Positions 615 through 38,602 of a stretch of 40,172 bases of DNA are shown in pieces. The position numbers and the translations under genes were made by a program. The stretch's first letter is position 1. Each line of letters opens with the position of its first letter. The DNA is from a bacterium (GTDB lineage Bacteria; Lernaellota; Lernaellaia; Lernaellales; Lernaellaceae): NCBI GenBank assembly GCA_036725605.1, contig DAIMDW010000038.1:1-40172 (forward strand). The letters run 5' to 3'. The notes below the pieces were generated by a model. It was not told the DNA's origin. It saw nothing but the letters and a program-made list of their open reading frames with translations, and did no database searches.

Positions 615-2305
615 TGAAACGGCGGTTGATTTTCCTCCTGGCGATTCTCCTGGCGGCCGCATCGCCGGCCCTGGCCATCGATGCGCAAAACGTCGTTCCG
701 GCCATGGGCCCGCAAAATCTGCTCACCTTGTACACGAGCGATCCGCTGGCGATGGGCCAGTTCGCCGTCGGCGTGTTCGGCAACTACGCCGCCGACCCGG
801 TGCGCTTCGAATATGAGAACGGCGACGAATTCGACGTCGTCGAGCAGATGGTCAGCGGGCAAGGTTACCTGGCGGTCGGCTTGTTCGACCGAATCGATCT
901 GATGGCCGGCGGCAGCTACAACATGGTCGTCGGCGACGATCTGAACGACTTCATCATCCCCGATTTCGGCGAGCCGGAAGACGAGATGGTCGCGCGCATC
1001 GGCGATGCGATCGTCGGCGCCAAACTGCGCATATTGCGAAATGAGCCGGGCCTGTTCGGTCTGGCCGTCGGCGGTTTCGTTACCGCGCCTACGGGCGGCG
1101 ACGATTATTACGTCGGCGCGGGCGCGACCTCTTTCGGCGGACATCTGATCGTCGACAAGCGCCTGGCGATGGTCAATCTGGCGGCCAACGTGGGCTACAA
1201 ATACCTCAGCGACGTGGACGACCTGTCGCCGGAAGGGCAAATCTACGGCGGCTTCGGCCTGGACGTGGCGCTCGATCAGTGGATCGGGCTGACCGGCGAG
1301 CTGATCGGGCGGACGGTCGATTACGGCGTGGACGAAATCGACGCGACCGTGCCGATGGAAGCGTTGGTCGGCGTGCGCATGTACACGCCGATCGGTGTGA
1401 ACTTCACCCTCGCCGGCGGCTTCGGCCTGACCGACGGCATCGGCAGTCCGTTGTACCGCGGGCTGGCCGGCATTTCCTTCTCGTATCCGAAATTGGTTTA
1501 CGGCGAACAAGCCGGAGCGATCATGCCGGCGTCCGATCCGTACAAGACCGACACCGACCGCGACGGACTGACGGACTACATGGAAGAGAAGGTCTACAAA
1601 ACCGATCCGAACAATCCGGACACTGACGGCGACAGCCTGCGCGATAACGAGGAAGTGCAACAGTACAACACCGATCCGAACAAGGCCGACAGCGACGGCG
1701 ACGGATTGACCGACGGCGCGGAAGCGCGGTTGTACGGCACCGACCCGCTCAAGGCCGACACCGACGGCGACACGATCAGCGACGGTCAGGAAGTCAACGA
1801 GCTGCGCACCAATCCGCTCAATCCCGACAGCGACGGCGACAACGTCGCCGACAACATCGACGGCGCGCCGCTGGAACCGGAAACGGTCAACGGCTTCATG
1901 GACGAGGACGGCGTGCCCGAGGTGGTCGTGGCCAAAAAGCCCAGCGGCGTGATGATGCTGGAAAACCAGATCGTCCTGCCGACCGCGTTGGTCTTCAACG
2001 ATCCCAACGGCGCGACGTTGACCAAAACCGACAAGATGCTGCTCAACGACGTGGCGGTGATTCTGCAGGAATACCCGCGCGTGAACATCAGCATCGAAGG
2101 ACACGTGGCGGCCGGCACGCCCAACGCCGAGAAACTGACCGGGCAACGGGCGACGGCGGTGATGAACTATCTGAATCGGCGCGGCATCGCCGCTTCGCGC
2201 ATGACGGCTGAAGGCATGGGCGACCAGGTGCCCATCGCCGACAACGAGACCGAAGCCGGACGCGCGGCGAACACGCGCATCGACTTCATCATCACCTCGC
2301 GCTGA
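614..2305 (+). CDS. OmpA-family outer membrane protein with thrombospondin type-3 (Ca-binding DxDxDG) repeats and a C-terminal OmpA peptidoglycan-binding domain
   Basis: Signal peptide MKRRLIFLLAILLAAASPALA. Predicted beta-barrel N-domain. Four DPNxxDTDGDxxxD repeats. C-terminal OmpA_C motif (NISIEGHVAAGT...LTGQRATAV..YL...GI...R). The start ATG overlaps the upstream stop (tgATG). Confidence 0.85.
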   Translation: MKRRLIFLLAILLAAASPALAIDAQNVVPAMGPQNLLTLYTSDPLAMGQFAVGVFGNYAADPVRFEYENGDEFDVVEQMVSGQGYLAVGLFDRIDLMAGGSYNMVVGDDLNDFIIPDFGEPEDEMVARIGDAIVGAKLRILRNEPGLFGLAVGGFVTAPTGGDDYYVGAGATSFGGHLIVDKRLAMVNLAANVGYKYLSDVDDLSPEGQIYGGFGLDVALDQWIGLTGELIGRTVDYGVDEIDATVPMEALVGVRMYTPIGVNFTLAGGFGLTDGIGSPLYRGLAGISFSYPKLVYGEQAGAIMPASDPYKTDTDRDGLTDYMEEKVYKTDPNNPDTDGDSLRDNEEVQQYNTDPNKADSDGDGLTDGAEARLYGTDPLKADTDGDTISDGQEVNELRTNPLNPDSDGDNVADNIDGAPLEPETVNGFMDEDGVPEVVVAKKPSGVMMLENQIVLPTALVFNDPNGATLTKTDKMLLNDVAVILQEYPRVNISIEGHVAAGTPNAEKLTGQRATAVMNYLNRRGIAASRMTAEGMGDQVPIADNETEAGRAANTRIDFIITSR

Positions 2306-2321
2306 CGATCATCCGCTCAAT

Positions 2322-2357
2322 AAAAAAGCCCGGGATCCGCTCCCGGGCTTTTCTTTT
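2322..2357. terminator. Bidirectional rho-independent terminator between convergent genes
   Basis: A6-GCCCGGGA-tccgc-TCCCGGGC-T4CT4. This is an 8-bp perfect stem flanked by an A-tract and a T-tract. Confidence 0.75.
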
Positions 2358-2369
2358 CGGCTGAACGCT

Positions 2370-3215
2370 TCAGGAGCGAATCGCTTCCAGAAACAGCTCG
2401 TACAATTTTTGCGTAACCGGTCCGGGTCGGCCGCTGCCGATTTGGCGATCGTCGATGCGCAGTACGGGCGTCACCTCGGTGGTCGTTCCCGAAAGAATCA
2501 CCTCGTCGGCCGCATAAAGGCCCTCGCGCGTCACCCATTCCTCGCGTACGGCGATGCCGGCCTTTTCGGCCAGACCGATCAGGAAACGGCGGGTGATGCC
2601 CGGCAGAATCTTGTGGTTGGTCGGATGCGTAAACAGCGTATCGTTTTTAACGACGAAGATATTGCTGGAGGTGCCTTCAAGGACGCGCTCGTCCGCGCCG
2701 ATGAAAATCGCCTCGTAACAGCCCGCTTCCACCGCCTGCTGCTTGGCGAGCACGTTGGGCAGCAGGTTGGTCGTTTTGATGTCGACGCGGGCCCAGCGGA
2801 TATCCGGCACGGTGATGCAACCGACGCCGCGCGCGGCCAGTTCGGCTTCCTTGTGGGGAAACTCGCGCACGGTGATGATCACCGTCGGCTCCGGCCGTTC
2901 GGCGGGAAACGCATGCGAACGCGGGGCAACGCCGCGGCTGATTTGCAGGTAAACCATCGCCTTGGGCATCAAGGCGCTTTCGTAGGTTTTTTGTATCTGC
3001 TCGCCGACATCGGCGACGTCGATATATTCCAGGCGAATCTCGTTCAGGCTGCGCCGCAGTCGTTCAAGATGAGCATCGAACAAAAACAGTCGCCCGTTGT
3101 AGGCGGTGATCACCTCATACACCGCGTCGCCGAAACAAAAGCCTCGATCGTTGATGGAGACCGTCGCCTCGGCGAAAGGTAAAATGCGTCCATTGACATA
3201 GGCAATTTCCGGCAT
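2370..3215 (-). CDS. dat: Class IV (fold type IV PLP) aminotransferase, most similar to D-amino-acid aminotransferase (branched-chain aminotransferase not excluded)
   Basis: Length 281 aa. Motifs RGVAPR, DIRW.R.DIK..NLLPNVLAKQ.A.EAG..EAI, EGTSSN, THP.N.ILPGITR and GSGRPGPVT match the Dat/IlvE family. Confidence 0.8.
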   Translation of the reverse strand: MPEIAYVNGRILPFAEATVSINDRGFCFGDAVYEVITAYNGRLFLFDAHLERLRRSLNEIRLEYIDVADVGEQIQKTYESALMPKAMVYLQISRGVAPRSHAFPAERPEPTVIITVREFPHKEAELAARGVGCITVPDIRWARVDIKTTNLLPNVLAKQQAVEAGCYEAIFIGADERVLEGTSSNIFVVKNDTLFTHPTNHKILPGITRRFLIGLAEKAGIAVREEWVTREGLYAADEVILSGTTTEVTPVLRIDDRQIGSGRPGPVTQKLYELFLEAIRS

Positions 3216-3240
3216 CGAACGATTCCCTTTCTCACGGAAG

Positions 3241-3249
3241 TGTGGATAA
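3241..3249 (-). promoter_or_regulatory. Perfect DnaA box (TTATCCACA on the minus strand)
   Basis: Exact 9-mer match. Confidence 0.6.
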
Positions 3250-3394
3250 ATAAATTATATTGCGCAATTGTTTACCAACTATAATAAACCACATTAACTA
3301 TTAATCGTAACCTATTGTATTATAAAAACTATCTATGTCGATATAAAAGCTTAAATCGCACATTACGGCCATTTTCACAAAATCCTATGCTTTT

Positions 3395-3414
3395 TTATCC
3401 ACAGTTTATCCACA
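3395..3414 (+). promoter_or_regulatory. Two tandem perfect DnaA boxes (TTATCCACA gt TTATCCACA)
   Basis: Exact 9-mer matches at 3395-3403 and 3406-3414, 2 bp apart, in the same orientation. Confidence 0.6.
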
Positions 3415-3649
3415 AAAGGAAACACTGAAAAATCCATTTACCGTAAGTGCAAGAAAATTTCCAGTATTTAGACGATGGCCAAGCGGTTTTTGTTGCGAGA
3501 TTTTTTAATTCGGGGAGTTTATCTTCCTCGTGATTTAAATTAGACTACTTTGGTTATTGTTGTGGTGTTCATTAAAAAATCGATTCCCGCCGCGCCAATG
3601 ATCGGTTGGGCGTCGAACAAGAATTCGAGAAGGAAGGAGGTGAATGTAG

Positions 3650-4444
3650 GTGCGCTTCAAACTATTTTGGATCCTCATCCTTATCAGTCTGATGACGTTA
3701 AGCGTGTTCATGGCATGCGACGACGACGATGACGACGATAACGATGACAACGACGACGACGACAACGACGACGGCGACGATGATGACGACGACGATGATG
3801 ACGATGACACCGGTGACGATGATACCGGTGATGACGACACCGGCGATGACGACACCGGTGATGACGATACCGGCGACGACGATACCGGCGACGACGATAC
3901 CGGTGACGACGACACCGGTGACGACGACACCGGCGACGACGACACCGGCGACGACGACACCGGCGACGACGATACGGTAGAGATCGGCACGAACGTCGGG
4001 CAAAAAATGGCCGACTTCAACGTAACGCTCAGCGACGGATCCACCTTCAATCTTTACGAGCATGAGGGCACAGTCATCTTATTTGACACAGCCGGCATGT
4101 ACTGAGGCAGCTGTGCCTCTGACTCTCCCGGGTTGGAGAGTATATATCAGGATTACAAAGACGAAGGTTTCCTCGTTGTGCAGTTGATCGGCGCGGACTT
4201 CAACGGAAATTATCCGCAGTTGGATGATCTGATTGCCTGGATCGCTTACATCAAGTCGCAGTACGGGGCCACGATCACGTACAATGTCGCGGCCGATCCA
4301 TATTTCAATATCGGCAGCATGTACAACAAAACCGGATACATTCCGTATTACTGGCTGGTGGACCAGGATCTGGTGATCAACTACAAAGCCAGTTACCTGA
4401 ATCCGTTCCGCTCGAGAATCGAGACTTTACTGGGTCTTGAGTAG
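3650..4444 (+). CDS. Putative selenoprotein: lipoprotein with a poly-Asp/(TGDDD)11 acidic linker and a TlpA/redoxin-family thioredoxin-fold domain with a UxxC active site (in-frame TGA at 4103-4105 read as Sec)
   Basis: GTG start 9 nt after AGGAAGGAGG. Signal peptide plus a lipobox-like ...LSVFMAC. ORFs 3650-4105 and 4133-4444 are in the same frame, separated only by TGA. Read-through gives FDTAGMY-U-GSCASDSPGLESIYQDYKDEGF. This aligns with TlpA [28 protein letters not shown]. The rest of the fold (..APDF.L.D.dG....L.d..GK.V.L: KMADFNVTLSDGSTFNLYEHEGTVILF) and the YIPYYWLVDQDLVI (cis-Pro region) are intact. Hairpins lie immediately 3' of the TGA at 4104-4119 and 4122-4141. Confidence 0.55.
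3809..3973 (+). repeat. 11 tandem copies of a 15-bp coding repeat (ACCGGYGAYGAYGAY) encoding (TGDDD)11, preceded by a D/N-rich run
   Basis: Direct reading of the sequence. Copies differ only at synonymous third positions. The repeat keeps the frame. Confidence 0.9.
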
Positions 4445-4461
4445 CGGGAAACTCACGGAAA

Positions 4462-4497
4462 GGGCGATGAACCAAACGGTTTGTCGCCCTTTTTTTT
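4462..4497 (+). terminator. Rho-independent terminator
   Basis: GGGCGA-tgaaccaaacggtttg-TCGCCC followed by T8. Confidence 0.75.
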
Positions 4498-6346
4498 AAT
4501 GGCCACGCAAACGACCGAGGGCATTGAGCAAGCGCCAGCCGCGGCTTTGGCGAATGGCCTCCAGTTCGGCTTCCTGCGCCGCCACCTTCTTTTGCGCCGC
4601 CATCAGCTCGCGATGCTTGCGGGCCAGTTGCCGCGCCATTTCCGGATTGCGCTTTTCCACGACAAAGGGGCCCAAAGCCAGCGCGTCCATTTCCGATTTA
4701 AGAAAACAGTCAATGGCGTCGGCGGGCGTTTCCACGATCGGATCGCCCGCCAAGTTGAAACTGGTGTTGAGCAGCACCGGCACGCCGGTTTCGCGTTCGA
4801 ACGCCGCCAGCAATTCGTGCAGCAGGCGGTTGGTTTCGGCGGTCACCGTCTGCAGGCGCGCGGTGCCGTCGACGTGCGTGACGGCCGGCACCAGCTCCGG
4901 CTTGCTGACGGACACGACGCGCAGCATGAACGGGCTGGCGCCGCTCAGCGCGAAATACTCGGCCGCCTTCTCCAACGGCGCGACGGGCGCGAAGGGACGG
5001 AACGCCTCGCGGTACTTGACCTTCTCGTTAAGCAGATCCTTGTTCGCGGCGCGGCGCGGATCGCAAAAGATCGAGCGGTTGCCCAGCGCGCGTGGACCGA
5101 TCTCCGCCCCGCCCTGGTGCCAGCCGACCACCGCGCCGGCGGCTAGACGTTTGGCGACTTCACCGGACACGTTGTCGGCGTAGTCGTACCATTTGAGCAC
5201 CGCGTCGTGCTCGGCGAGCGCTGTTTCGTATTCCTCGCGCGAATAGGTGCGGCCCAGGTACGGATGCGCCATCGACCAGACCTTCTCGTTGCCGGCCTCG
5301 TACCACGGCCACAAGGCCGCGCCCAGCGCCGTGCCGTCGTCGGCGGCGCAAGGCACGATGAACACGTTGTCGAAACCGGCGCGCTCGACGATCTTCTGGT
5401 TGGCGACCGAGTTGAGCGCCACGCCGCCGGCCAGCACGAGGTTGGCGCTGCCGGTTTCCTTTTGTAGATCGCCCGTCAGCGTCACCAGGGTTTCTTCCAA
5501 CGTCTGTTGCACGGCGAAGGCCATGTCCATGTCGAGCGGGCGCAGTTCCTCGCTGTGATGACGCGGCTGCCCGAAGAGTTTAACGAAATCGGCCGGCACC
5601 TTGCGACCGCGAATGTCGAAGGTCTGGTAGGTGGGATCGATCTCGTAGGCCAGCGGCGCCGGATGGCCCACCGCCGCGCGCCATTGCTCGGCCAGCAGCG
5701 GCGTGCCGTAGGGCGCCAGGCCCATGGTCTTTCCTTCCTGAAAATCGCCGAAGCCGGCAAAACTCGTCGCGAGCTGGTACATCGCGCCCAGGCTGTTCAT
5801 CGCGCGTTTGCGGCTGCACACCTTGTGCAGTTCGCGCAGGTCGTGGCCCTTGGCGTGATAAAACGTGGTGTGCTCGACCTTGGGAATCACCCGCCGGCCG
5901 GGACGATGTTCGATAACGTTGCCCGCGCCGTCGACGACCAGGATCGCCGCTTCGGTGAACGGCGACGCGGCATAGGCGCCCAGCGCGTGCGCGAAGTGAT
6001 GGTTGAGCACGACGATCTTTTGCGGATCGAGCACGTCGGGCAGTTGGGCGGCGACATCGGCGACGGTCAGGTTGCGTAGCGGCTTTTGCGGATGATAGAC
6101 CACCGAGCCGACCGCGACGATCGCCGCGCAATCCAGCAGCACGGCGCCTGCCCGATCGAGCACGTAGTCGATCGCCTTGTGCGGCAACGTGCACAGATAG
6201 GATCCGTCGGGCGTGACGGCCACCGAATGCTTTTTACGGTCGAGACGCTCCTCGGCGATGCCGCACAGCACCTGCCCGTCGCGCACGAGCACGGCACTGC
6301 GATCATGGCTGACGTTGATGCCCAGAACGAGACCGGAACCGCTCAT
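4496..6346 (-). CDS. Carbamoyltransferase (NodU/CmcH/HypF-like O-carbamoyltransferase family)
   Basis: 615 aa. Kae1/YgjD-like ASKH N-domain (LGINVSHDRSAVLV...HHFAHALGAY) and C-terminal carbamoyltransferase domain (VGWHQGGAEIGPRALGNRSI, NTSFN). Confidence 0.85.
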   Translation of the reverse strand: MSGSGLVLGINVSHDRSAVLVRDGQVLCGIAEERLDRKKHSVAVTPDGSYLCTLPHKAIDYVLDRAGAVLLDCAAIVAVGSVVYHPQKPLRNLTVADVAAQLPDVLDPQKIVVLNHHFAHALGAYAASPFTEAAILVVDGAGNVIEHRPGRRVIPKVEHTTFYHAKGHDLRELHKVCSRKRAMNSLGAMYQLATSFAGFGDFQEGKTMGLAPYGTPLLAEQWRAAVGHPAPLAYEIDPTYQTFDIRGRKVPADFVKLFGQPRHHSEELRPLDMDMAFAVQQTLEETLVTLTGDLQKETGSANLVLAGGVALNSVANQKIVERAGFDNVFIVPCAADDGTALGAALWPWYEAGNEKVWSMAHPYLGRTYSREEYETALAEHDAVLKWYDYADNVSGEVAKRLAAGAVVGWHQGGAEIGPRALGNRSIFCDPRRAANKDLLNEKVKYREAFRPFAPVAPLEKAAEYFALSGASPFMLRVVSVSKPELVPAVTHVDGTARLQTVTAETNRLLHELLAAFERETGVPVLLNTSFNLAGDPIVETPADAIDCFLKSEMDALALGPFVVEKRNPEMARQLARKHRELMAAQKKVAAQEAELEAIRQSRGWRLLNALGRLRGH

Positions 6347-9981: not shown

Positions 9982-10410
9982 ATGAACGAAACGTTGATTG
10001 TTCGCTTCCACGCAAGCCTGTTGGACATCCTCAACGGCGTGCTGGAGATGCGCGCGAAGGACAAAACATTCGAGTTGCTGGCCCCGAGCGAAACGTTGGC
10101 GCTGGAGATCATCGGCAAGCACAAGTCGCTGGCGATGAGCGAGTTGGCCCGGCTGGCGGGCACGGCGGCCAACACGATGACCGGCATCGTCGACCGGCTC
10201 GTGCGCCGGCACATCGCGCGCCGCACGACCTCGTCCGCCGATCGGCGGGTGGTGCTGGTCGAGCTGACCGACAACGGGCTCAAGCTGTTCGGGCAGCATC
10301 AACAGTTCACCAAACGCATCATCGCCGGGTTGTTGAAAACGCTCAATCCGGAAGAACAGCAGTCCTTCGTGGAGATGTTCGAACGCATTACCGCTCCCCT
10401 TAAATCATAG
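9982..10410 (+). CDS. MarR-family transcriptional regulator
   Basis: Winged-HTH MarR pattern (LAPSETLALEIIGKHKSLAMSELARLAG...TMTGIVDRLVRRHIARRTTSSADRRVVLVELTDNG). Start MNETL (the ORF track begins upstream at 9919). Confidence 0.8.
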   Translation: MNETLIVRFHASLLDILNGVLEMRAKDKTFELLAPSETLALEIIGKHKSLAMSELARLAGTAANTMTGIVDRLVRRHIARRTTSSADRRVVLVELTDNGLKLFGQHQQFTKRIIAGLLKTLNPEEQQSFVEMFERITAPLKS

Positions 10411-36158: not shown

Positions 36159-36247
36159 CCGCCCTCTCCCGCTTCCATGCATACCACAGTTTATAAATGT
36201 CAGAAAATATTCTTGCGCTTCGCCGAATCGTACTTATCTTGCCAGCA

Positions 36248-38602
36248 ATGCCGTCACTACGAACACGATTTGAACGTTGGCTCAGTCGCGCCCGGGGCGT
36301 GCCGGTCACTTACGACCTCAAGCCCTACGAGCGGCGGCTGGCGAAGATCAACGCGCTCGAAGCGGCGCTGCAAAAGCAAAGCGACGAGCAACTGCGCGCC
36401 TTGGCCGCGTCGTTGCGGGAGCAGGCGTATAACGGCGTTTCGCTCGACAAACTGACCGACGAGGGATTCGCCCTGGTGCGCGAGGCGGCGCGGCGCGTGC
36501 TGACGATGCGTCCTTACGATGTGCAGATGATCGCCGGACTGGCGCTGCACGACGGGCAGGTCATCGAAATGGAAACCGGCGAAGGCAAAACCCTCGCCGC
36601 GGTCGCGCCCGCGTGGCTCAACGCGCTGACCGGCGAAGGCGTGCACGTGCTGACCTTCAACGATTATCTCGCCCGGCGCGACGCGCAGTGGATGGGTCCG
36701 GTATACGAATTTCTCGGCCTGCGTGTCGGTCACGTGCAAGAAGGCATGGGGCTGCGAGAGCGGCAGGCGGCATACGGCGCGGACATCACCTACGGCACCG
36801 CCAAGGAAATCGGCTTCGATTATCTGCACGATCAACTGGCCGCATCAGTCGACGAACTGCGCCAACGTTCTTTCCATTTCGCCATCGTCGACGAGGCCGA
36901 TTCGTTGTTGATCGACGAGGCGCGCATCCCATTGGTGTTGGCCGGCAGCACGGCCGAGCGTCCGCCCGAGCCGGCGCGGCTGGCGGCGACGGTCGCCGAG
37001 TTGCGTCCGGCGATCGACTACGAAACCGACGAACATGCGCGAAATGTCTTTCTAACCGACATCGGCCTGGAGCGCCTGGAGCAACGTCTGGACGTCGCCA
37101 GTCTGCACGACGAGGCCAACCGCGATCTGCTGACGACGATCAACCTGGCGTTGCATGCGCGCGTGCTGCTGCATCGCGACATCGATTACATTGTGCGCGA
37201 AGACCGCGTCGAGTTGGTCGACGAATTCACCGGGCGCGTGGCGGAAAATCGCCGTTGGCCCGACGGCCTGCAGGCGGCATTGGAGGCGAAGGAAAACGTC
37301 GGCCGCCAGGAGGACGGGCGCATTCTCGGTTCGATCACGCTGCAGCATTTCATGCGTCTGTACCCCAAGCTGGCCGGGATGACCGGCACGGCCGCTCCCG
37401 CCGCCGAGGAATTCGCGCAGTTTTACGAACTGGGCGTCGTGGTCGTGCCGCCGAACAAACCGTGCATCCGCCGCGACGAAAGCGATCTGGTGTTTGCGAC
37501 GCAGGCGGCGAAGGAAAAGGCGCTGATCGAGGCTATCCGCCGCATTCACGCGGCCGGGCAACCGGTGCTGGTGGGCACGCGGACGGTCAGCGAATCGGAA
37601 CGCCTGGCCGAGGCGCTGCACCGGGCCGAGATCGAATGCCGCGTGCTGAACGCGAAAAACGACGAGCTGGAAGCGCAAATCATCGCCCAGGCCGGGCACG
37701 CCGGCGCGGTGACGATTTCGACCAACATGGCCGGACGCGGCACGGACATCCGCCTGGGCGCGGACGATTTCGAGCGACGGCGCATCGTGCAACTTGGCGG
37801 GCTGTACGTGATCGGCACGAACCGGCACGAAAGCCGGCGCATCGACGATCAACTGCGCGGGCGGTGCGGCCGGCAAGGCGACCCGGGCGTGTCGCAATTT
37901 TTCGTCAGCCTCGAAGACGAGCTGATCGCCAAATACGGCCTGCGCGAACTGCTGCCGAAAACCGAGGGCGACAGCGCGATCGACGATCCGCGCGCCATGC
38001 GGGAGATCGCCCGCGCGCAACGGATCATCGAGGGCGAAAATCTGTCTATCCGCAAAACGCTGGCCAAATACACGGCGATCGTCGAAGAGCAACGCCGGAT
38101 GATCCGTGATAAGCGCGACGCTGTGTTGCACGACGAATTCGATTCCGTGTTGGCCGGACGCGAGCCGGAATTTTATCGGGAGCTTGTGGGGCGCGTCGGC
38201 GAACGCGGCGTGCGCCTGGCCGAACGGGTGGTGACGCAGCATCATCTCGACCGCGCCTGGTGCGACCACCTGGCCACCGTCGCGGACATCCGCGAGGGCA
38301 TTCACCTGTATTCGATCGGGCAAACGAACATTTACGGCGTTCCCAAGGACCCACTCAACGAGTATCAGATCCGCGTCAGCGAGGCGTTCGGCGAGATGGT
38401 GCAAACGCTGGAAGAGGATATCGTGCAAACGCTGCGCGCGGTGACGATCACGCCTGAGGGCCTCGACGCACGCCGTGAAAAACTGACCGGCCCTTCCTCG
38501 ACCTGGACCTACCTGGTCAACGACATGCCCTACGGTCACGGCTTCGAGCGTTTCTTTAAAGGCATGAAACAGCGCATCCTCAATTCGCCGATGTTTCGCT
38601 GA
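36248..38602 (+). CDS. secA: SecA-family preprotein translocase ATPase lacking the C-terminal linker and zinc-finger domain (SecA2-sized)
   Basis: DEAD motor NBD1/PPXD/NBD2/HSD/HWD are all alignable with E. coli SecA (METGEGKTL, VDEADSILIDEARTPL-like, LAGMTGTA, TNMAGRGTDI, IGTNRHESRRIDDQLRGRCGRQGDPG). It ends about 100 aa short of canonical SecA, with no CxCxSGx8C(H/C) tail. Confidence 0.8.
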   Translation: MPSLRTRFERWLSRARGVPVTYDLKPYERRLAKINALEAALQKQSDEQLRALAASLREQAYNGVSLDKLTDEGFALVREAARRVLTMRPYDVQMIAGLALHDGQVIEMETGEGKTLAAVAPAWLNALTGEGVHVLTFNDYLARRDAQWMGPVYEFLGLRVGHVQEGMGLRERQAAYGADITYGTAKEIGFDYLHDQLAASVDELRQRSFHFAIVDEADSLLIDEARIPLVLAGSTAERPPEPARLAATVAELRPAIDYETDEHARNVFLTDIGLERLEQRLDVASLHDEANRDLLTTINLALHARVLLHRDIDYIVREDRVELVDEFTGRVAENRRWPDGLQAALEAKENVGRQEDGRILGSITLQHFMRLYPKLAGMTGTAAPAAEEFAQFYELGVVVVPPNKPCIRRDESDLVFATQAAKEKALIEAIRRIHAAGQPVLVGTRTVSESERLAEALHRAEIECRVLNAKNDELEAQIIAQAGHAGAVTISTNMAGRGTDIRLGADDFERRRIVQLGGLYVIGTNRHESRRIDDQLRGRCGRQGDPGVSQFFVSLEDELIAKYGLRELLPKTEGDSAIDDPRAMREIARAQRIIEGENLSIRKTLAKYTAIVEEQRRMIRDKRDAVLHDEFDSVLAGREPEFYRELVGRVGERGVRLAERVVTQHHLDRAWCDHLATVADIREGIHLYSIGQTNIYGVPKDPLNEYQIRVSEAFGEMVQTLEEDIVQTLRAVTITPEGLDARREKLTGPSSTWTYLVNDMPYGHGFERFFKGMKQRILNSPMFR

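Follow-up and report, generated by a model that had tools for sequence, protein, structure and literature searches.

A predicted selenocysteine-containing, TlpA-like lipoprotein encoded across an in-frame UGA in a bacterium of the Lernaellaceae

What is the role of a single in-frame TGA that falls in the middle of an otherwise intact thioredoxin-fold gene? The question is raised by positions 3650-4444 (plus strand) of a stretch of 40,172 nucleotides of bacterial DNA, called the window hereafter (NCBI GenBank assembly GCA_036725605.1, contig DAIMDW010000038.1, positions 1 to 40,172 of the forward strand; GTDB family Lernaellaceae). The window is an entire contig of a metagenome-assembled genome whose proteins include HPQ71676.1, HPQ71695.1 and HPQ71703.1, and which has DAIPLW01 and DAINPV01 as sister genomes. 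A first-pass annotation, made from the letters of the window alone, had noticed two adjacent open reading frames (ORFs) at this place and proposed that the TGA between them occupies the first Cys position of the CxxC motif of a TlpA/redoxin-type lipoprotein, i.e. that the two ORFs are one selenoprotein gene. Based on comparison with relatives, we consider that region 3650-4444 is very probably a single gene for a selenoprotein, in which the UGA would be decoded as selenocysteine (Sec). With high probability the product is an unannotated addition to the thioredoxin-fold UxxC selenoproteins that have already been catalogued. The elements on which this reading is built are listed below, where A2 denotes a 16-sequence alignment of Sec and Cys forms and SECIS a selenocysteine insertion sequence:

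3635..3640, plus strand: Shine-Dalgarno sequence AGGAGG, 9 nt ahead of the GTG start, read from the sequence
3650..4444, plus strand: predicted selenoprotein coding sequence of 264 residues, with a GTG start, Sec at residue 152 and a TAG stop codon at 4442-4444
3650..3718, plus strand: predicted signal peptide (residues 1-22, with ...VFMA at its end) and, at 3716-3718, the putative lipobox Cys23, read from the sequence
3719..3976, plus strand: poly-Asp linker of 86 residues, read from the translation
3977..4441, plus strand: ResA/TlpA-type thioredoxin-fold (redoxin) domain of 155 residues, from PF00578, PF08534, PDB matches and alignment A2
4103..4105, plus strand: in-frame UGA, predicted Sec codon (U152), replacing the N-terminal nucleophilic Cys of CxxC
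4112..4114, plus strand: TGT, the resolving Cys (Cys155) of U-G-S-C, invariant column C46 in alignment A2
4122..4141, plus strand: SECIS-like hairpin with stem ACUCUCC/GGAGAGU and loop CGGGUU (4129-4134), from folding and covariation
4343..4345, plus strand: CCG, the cis-Pro of the thioredoxin fold (in YIPYYW), invariant column P123 in alignment A2

The region is one reading frame with the TGA at 4103-4105 as its sole interruption: ORFs 3650-4105 and 4133-4444 lie in the same frame, and both the frame and the translation agree with the split described in the first-pass annotation. Reading through the TGA (marked by an asterisk) gives ...TVILFDTAGMY-*-GSCASDSPGLESIYQDYKDEGF... or, in a longer context, ...EGTVILFDTAGMY-*-GSCASDSPGLESIYQDYKDEGFLVV..., and the peptide across the predicted Sec would be ...TAGMY-U-GSCASDSPGLESIYQDYK. 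Public gene calls (NCBI, JGI, ENA and Logan) all split the gene at the TGA into two unnamed ORFs, and no family member bears a selenoprotein label in the source annotations. At the N-terminus, ...LSVFMA-C23 is followed by a run of Asp; FMAC conforms to a lipobox only loosely. In every full-length relative, a hydrophobic segment likewise leads to a Cys and then to a run of Asp. Within the linker (3800-3972), a 15-nt unit that encodes DDDTG is repeated 11.5 times in tandem. The number of DDDTG copies and the signal peptide vary between relatives while the redoxin domains stay about 90% identical, thus the acidic tether evolves quickly in length.

Two Pfam profiles match across the TGA when U is written as C: AhpC-TSA (PF00578; residues 116-245, profile positions 1-123 of 124, E 1e-9 for the domain alone, 36.4-38.6 bits for a gathering cut-off of 26) and Redoxin (PF08534; E 3e-7, 28.4-30.6 bits for a cut-off of 26.6). 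Sequence matches in the PDB are to ResA, DsbE-like and GPx-like thioredoxin-fold proteins. The structure was examined on the AlphaFold model of P0018, a Cys homologue that is 35% identical to the window protein and has the same architecture. This model has a confidently predicted domain (predicted local distance difference test, pLDDT, ~97), an N-terminal helix and an acidic linker modelled as disordered (pLDDT ~54). Its top PDB matches in Foldseek are 4nmu, 1su9, 1st9 (ResA), 3gl3 and 4hqz (template modelling (TM) scores 0.77-0.88, and 0.82-0.88 for ResA structures), the best matches including ResA, DsbE, Etrx lipoproteins and CcmG. The CVPC motif of the model (149-152) is found at the start of helix 150-169; in alignment A2, the C(U)xxC at the start of helix 1 and the conserved cis-Pro correspond to the invariant columns C43, C46 and P123. 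The TGA column of A2 is paired with an invariant Cys, and Cys46, Pro51, Leu53 and the cis-Pro are also invariant. Likewise, 33 full-length homologues and a TlpA-like protein of Bacteroidota (L010) have the first Cys of CxxC where the window has the TGA. The profile matches across the TGA and the alignment with Cys homologues thus bear out the placement of the TGA on the first Cys of the motif, with the resolving Cys kept.

A profile search delineates a discrete subfamily in which the Cys forms score at least 190 bits and generic TlpA/ResA proteins follow from about 90 bits down. These Cys forms are labelled as TlpA family proteins in Candidatus Lernaella stagnicola and in metagenome-assembled genomes of Deltaproteobacteria/Myxococcales. 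The NCBIfam models returned weak ResA, TlpA and peroxiredoxin matches to the window protein, all far below their cut-offs. Several named families were rejected in this way: (i), ResA proper (NF002854) scored 34.4 bits for a cut-off of 170; (ii), rhizobial TlpA (NF047696) scored 15.9 bits for a cut-off of 230; (iii), the ResA-like WAxxUGC selenoprotein (NF041054) scored 15 bits for a cut-off of 300, the window motif being TAGMYUGSC; and (iv), the UGSC family selenoprotein (NF041046) gave no match at E <= 0.1. The peroxiredoxin motif PxxxT/SxxC(U) was discarded as well: LFDTAGMYUGSC has a Thr at -5, lacks a Pro at -7 and is followed by a CxxC-type partner.

Is the TGA a peculiarity of this contig? 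A word-indexed protein search found only split halves, of which P0005 ends exactly at ...TAGMY. The same TGA is present on the contigs of P0005 (L001-L007) and in two GTDB species representatives (L008 and L009); L006, with only 78% DNA identity, still has it and reads GMY*PGCASDSPVLES. An exhaustive HMMER search with the 112 residues C-terminal of the TGA as a query yielded 63 matches, among them 33 full-length proteins with a predicted lipoprotein signal, a poly-Asp linker and a redoxin domain with the motif [WY]CxxC, and about a dozen fragments of ~100 residues that start just past the active site. All five short fragments checked at the DNA level (L016, L017, L019, L021 and L022) are preceded by an in-frame TGA at the first Cys position. 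Two further loci from a metagenome scan (L024 and L025, 45-47% identical over the matched region) also have the TGA. Overall, every one of the 14 distinct close sequences keeps the TGA, although their redoxin domains share as little as 38% and at most 90% identity with that of the window (38-90%). The syntenic orthologue in L035 has Cys.

On the L019 contig (JGI 3300045017, contig Ga0438303_0000033, 132 kb), positions 1896-4309 encode three paralogues in tandem. All three have a predicted lipoprotein signal, a poly-Asp linker and a TGA at the first Cys (2259, 3237 and 3974), with the same hairpin downstream. The metagenome scan also brought up a distant marine clade (L026-L033, 27-34% identity) that has TGA at the first Cys, in motifs such as AEW*GAC and FW*GGC; its linker is TSP3-like (DTDGDG) instead of poly-Asp, and L026 has ~72% G+C. 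The loci of this clade in L026/L027 are at 10001-10402. One family member, P0041 (JGI, 77-kb contig), reads ...SSAMWRRYCRYETPLLE... and has neither Cys nor a stop at the first-Cys position, perhaps because of a frameshift or of faulty gene calling near a TGA.

If the UGA is decoded as Sec, a SECIS element is expected just downstream, and the first-pass annotation had drawn two hairpins there. Both do fold (the 68-nt stretch that contains them folds at -21.2 kcal/mol, z -1.97) but they differ in conservation. The hairpin at 4104-4119 is lineage-specific, being replaced by a different hairpin in L001 and L009 and lacking in most relatives, and it was rejected as a part of the SECIS. The hairpin at 4122-4141, in contrast, is conserved and covarying. 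It folds at -10.5 kcal/mol with a 7-bp stem (4122-4128/4135-4141), and the window contains the arrangement TGA-N19-CTCCCGKGYTGGAG a single time, whereas none of 100 shuffles produces it; the arrangement recurs at the corresponding position in each of the 14 distinct close relatives. In alignment A4, which contains the 14 distinct Sec-form sequences, 90.8% of the cells of the 7-bp stem are paired, as opposed to just 38-53% in slid controls. Three of the seven stem pairs show compensatory changes (UA/AU/GU; CG/GC/UA; AU/GC), none of 500 shuffles reaches the observed covariation score, and RNAalifold independently predicts the same helix.

The hairpin also distinguishes the Sec from the Cys forms. 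All the close Sec forms have a hairpin of the 4122-4141 type, and the three Cys forms examined (L035-L037) lack it, the local folds being -5.4 to -11.3 kcal/mol in the former versus -1.3 to -3.9 kcal/mol in the latter. The Cys forms encode the same T-P-x-L-E/Q peptide with the codons ACG CCG, versus ACU/UCU/GCU CCC in the Sec forms. In the marine clade, L026 and L029-L033 have a hairpin of different sequence, e.g. GCCGCC-GGUU-CGGCGG, at about the same distance from the UGA, while that of L028 is weak (-3.5 kcal/mol). According to a 2026 review (PMC13188914), bacterial SECIS (bSECIS) elements have an apical loop of 3-9 nt, an upper stem of 4-16 bp, a G in the first two loop positions, usually then followed by G or U, a distance of 16-37 nt between UGA and loop and a minimum free energy of -7.5 kcal/mol or lower. 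The window hairpin lies within each of these published limits: its loop has 6 nt with a G at position 2 followed by G or U, its stem 7 bp, the loop begins 23 nt from the UGA and the energy is -10.5 kcal/mol.

Several observations weigh against selenocysteine as the decoded residue and must be set beside this evidence. The loop fits the commonest bSECIS sub-pattern, N1-G-[G/U]-N-N2, loosely. Four invariant stem pairs are embedded in codons of the conserved peptide (T/S)P-x-LE and the conservation of the stem may therefore be partly driven by the protein. The control from the Cys forms consists of three sequences, compared with 14 Sec forms. No Rfam SECIS family matched the whole window at gathering scores or the surroundings of the TGA at E <= 10, a level at which chance matches far below threshold were returned. 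No selA, selB, selD or tRNA-Sec lies within the 40-kb window or the fetched loci: ARAGORN found no tRNA-Sec in the window and 23 loci (and no tRNA at all in the window), and Pfam found no SelA, SelB or SelD among 30 window genes and 10 genes of L026. Literature searches for the accessions of the metagenome-assembled genomes and for Lernaellota together with selenoproteins found nothing relevant, and the paper describing the phylum reports a periplasmic FdhAB with no mention of selenocysteine (PMC9324843). Lastly, selenium incorporation itself is a prediction from sequence comparison.

The alternative that best survives is that the UGA is decoded, although not as Sec: Cys, Trp or Gly could enter at this codon through near-cognate read-through, with the help of a suppressor or unusual tRNA, or through Sec machinery charged with Cys, and the hairpin would be a stimulator of read-through. 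The comparative evidence shows translation of the codon and a role for the hairpin and is silent on the inserted amino acid, and the missing Sec genes in the window and fetched loci also suit this explanation. Yet the UGA coincides with the nucleophilic Cys of a redox motif, an arrangement shared with the UxxC thioredoxin-fold selenoproteins catalogued in PMC13188914, the hairpin agrees with the SelB-type SECIS rules for position, loop and stem, and TGA is an ordinary stop for about half of the ORF calls in the window (16 of the 30 greedy calls outside the redoxin gene), which also rules out a genome-wide reassignment of TGA. A crude scan based on G+C at third codon positions (GC3) found no other convincing TGA-interrupted gene in the window. 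We thus regard insertion of another amino acid as improbable.

Still less probable, in our opinion, is that the UGA is a true stop, either in a decaying pseudogene or between an N-terminal acidic lipoprotein and a 103-residue C-terminal fragment translated from TTG 4133. All public gene callers annotate the locus in this manner and a TTG or GTG is indeed found in the hairpin loop region of all relatives, but the pattern of selection is of another kind. A comparison of five lineages from the clade of the window gives dN/dS (the ratio of nonsynonymous to synonymous substitution rates) values of 0.16-0.25 downstream of the TGA, with dS up to 1.0; most upstream values are in the range 0.13-0.35, and a pair of nearly identical sequences gives 0. 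The same TGA is retained with no other lesion across 38-90% identity, with dN/dS ~0.2 on both sides. Furthermore, a restart at the earliest possible codon would skip the nine codons that follow the TGA, which specify the invariant resolving Cys and Pro51; each half on its own lacks part of the thioredoxin fold, the three L019 paralogues share the arrangement, and a simple scan found no plus-strand terminator-like site inside 3650-4444, including between the half-ORFs. Together, the conservation of the TGA, the purifying selection and the incompleteness of the halves make the pseudogene, split-gene and sequencing-error explanations very unlikely. The last of these, an error in a TGC or TGT codon, is a general possibility in a metagenome-assembled contig and is refuted here, since assemblies made independently of one another (NCBI, JGI, ENA and Logan runs) have the same TGA.

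Taking the decoding of the UGA as Sec to be the best reading, a low-resolution mechanism may be suggested. Translation would start at GTG 3650 and, when the ribosome reaches UGA 4103, the hairpin 4122-4141 would recruit SelB with Sec-tRNA(Sec), so that Sec would be inserted and no termination would occur. The product would then be exported, lipidated at Cys23 and tethered to a membrane by its long, presumably disordered poly-Asp linker. In the redox motif U-G-S-C, Sec152 may be the exposed nucleophile and Cys155 may resolve the mixed intermediate as a selenenylsulfide. We propose that the enzyme acts as an extracytoplasmic thiol-disulfide reductase or isomerase and, by analogy, that a CcdA/DsbD-type protein could be its electron donor. 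The proposed redox role rests on established thioredoxin-fold chemistry.

How does the predicted protein compare with known systems? Thioredoxin-fold oxidoreductases outside the cytoplasm, such as Bacillus ResA, TlpA, CcmG/DsbE and the Etrx lipoproteins, share with it the fold (as judged from the P0018 model), the position of CxxC, the cis-Pro and a predicted tethering outside the cytoplasm. The window protein differs from them in that Sec would replace the nucleophilic Cys and that the predicted tether is a lipid with an acidic linker rather than a transmembrane helix. No cytochrome c maturation or copper-centre assembly genes are found in the window neighbourhood. Among selenoproteins, PMC13188914 lists a "Prx-like thiol:disulfide oxidoreductase" (PF00578, UxxC/UxxU) and a "Redoxin family protein" (PF08534, UxxC), and also a "thiol-disulfide isomerase-like" protein and a "UGC-containing TlpA family" (cd02966). 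The Prx-like and Redoxin selenoproteins resemble the window protein in their Pfam families, in the Sec at the first position of UxxC and in the bSECIS just downstream. The likeness is drawn from Pfam family and motif, and the window subfamily is distinct in its predicted lipoprotein signal and long poly-Asp linker. The WAxxUGC selenoprotein NF041054 shares the TlpA/ResA fold and the active-site Sec, the window family having the motif [AG]-[MLG]-[YW]-U-[GP]-x-C instead. As for the UGSC family NF041046, the tetrapeptide U-G-S-C is shared by chance: orthologues read UPGC, UGGC, UPSC and UPYC, and UGSC is thus not a feature of the family.

When did the gene arrive at this locus? The order of the surrounding genes was compared between Sec- and Cys-form relatives:

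Window, Sec form: TSP3/OmpA, aminotransferase IV, redoxin, carbamoyltransferase, 131-residue ORF, LplA
L024, Sec form: same gene order as the window, flanking proteins 53-66% identical
L035 (Candidatus Lernaella stagnicola, phylum Lernaellota, GCA_030765525.1), Cys form: OmpA, aminotransferase IV, redoxin, ..., LplA, flanking proteins 43-64% identical
L036, Cys form: redoxin beside a carbamoyltransferase 66% identical to that of the window

Because gene order is kept in relatives of either form, the gene appears to be ancestral at the locus and not a recent import. The first-pass annotation had read the low G+C of the gene and an adjacent AT-rich island as a sign of horizontal acquisition. The composition does differ modestly (gene G+C 0.535 versus 0.606 for the window; GC3 0.71 for the gene and 0.69 for the redoxin domain), but horizontal acquisition was rejected in view of the shared gene order and of flanking proteins that are 43-66% identical. 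The low-G+C "island", a 434-nt stretch upstream of the gene at 0.359 G+C, separates two divergent genes and is simply intergenic; together with a slightly lower GC3 in the redoxin domain, it accounts for the low G+C.

In a crude neighbour-joining tree (without support values), the Sec and Cys forms are interleaved: L022 (Sec) is nearest to P0014 (Cys, 55%) and the L019 paralogues (Sec) are nearest to P0013 and P0007 (Cys, 58-59%). This suggests that more than one Cys/Sec exchange may have occurred in the family. It is tempting to speculate that the family is a distinct, unannotated subfamily of periplasmic TlpA-like lipoproteins on poly-Asp tethers in Lernaellota-related bacteria, and that its SECIS is built from the codons of a pre-existing (T/S)P-x-LE-(S/T) peptide, an arrangement that would allow repeated switching between Cys and Sec at a single syntenic locus. 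We put this forward tentatively, as a possible scenario that falls somewhat short of being probable.

The known selenoprotein classes and their mechanism are unchanged by this locus, since TlpA/redoxin-type UxxC selenoproteins have already been catalogued (PMC13188914). What is added is a clean Sec/Cys orthologue pair at a conserved locus and, in a SECIS that overlaps a conserved peptide, a convenient natural system to study how Cys-to-Sec switches arise. If the gene is decoded as we propose, every public annotation of it is wrong; with NCBI, JGI, ENA and Logan all splitting it at the TGA, the family is invisible in selenoproteome surveys. The locus further points to a use of selenocysteine by relatives of the candidate phylum Lernaellota and, if true, this would be the first indication of Sec decoding in that phylum.

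Two elements flank the gene:

3216..3649, plus strand: AT-rich intergenic region (35.9% G+C), presumed promoter region, between the divergent aminotransferase-IV gene (minus strand) and the redoxin gene
4457..4497, plus strand: intrinsic terminator (-25.3 kcal/mol, z -5.0) that consists of a long hairpin and a U8 run, between the redoxin gene and the convergent carbamoyltransferase gene

Sigma-70-like matches within 3216-3649 are weak and no more frequent than in shuffled sequences, and a promoter is presumed there from the position of the region. Further upstream, a TSP3-repeat/OmpA gene (512-2305) and the class-IV aminotransferase gene (2370-3215) keep their position in Sec- and Cys-form relatives. 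At the other end of the window, a SecA homologue (36197-38602) bears the NCBI name "accessory Sec system translocase SecA2"; its longest ORF is 801 residues long for 784 in the deposited protein, and its start codon is uncertain. Finally, the very stable hairpin 4457-4497 may terminate transcription in both directions, and it extends into the stop codon (4496-4498) of the minus-strand gene.

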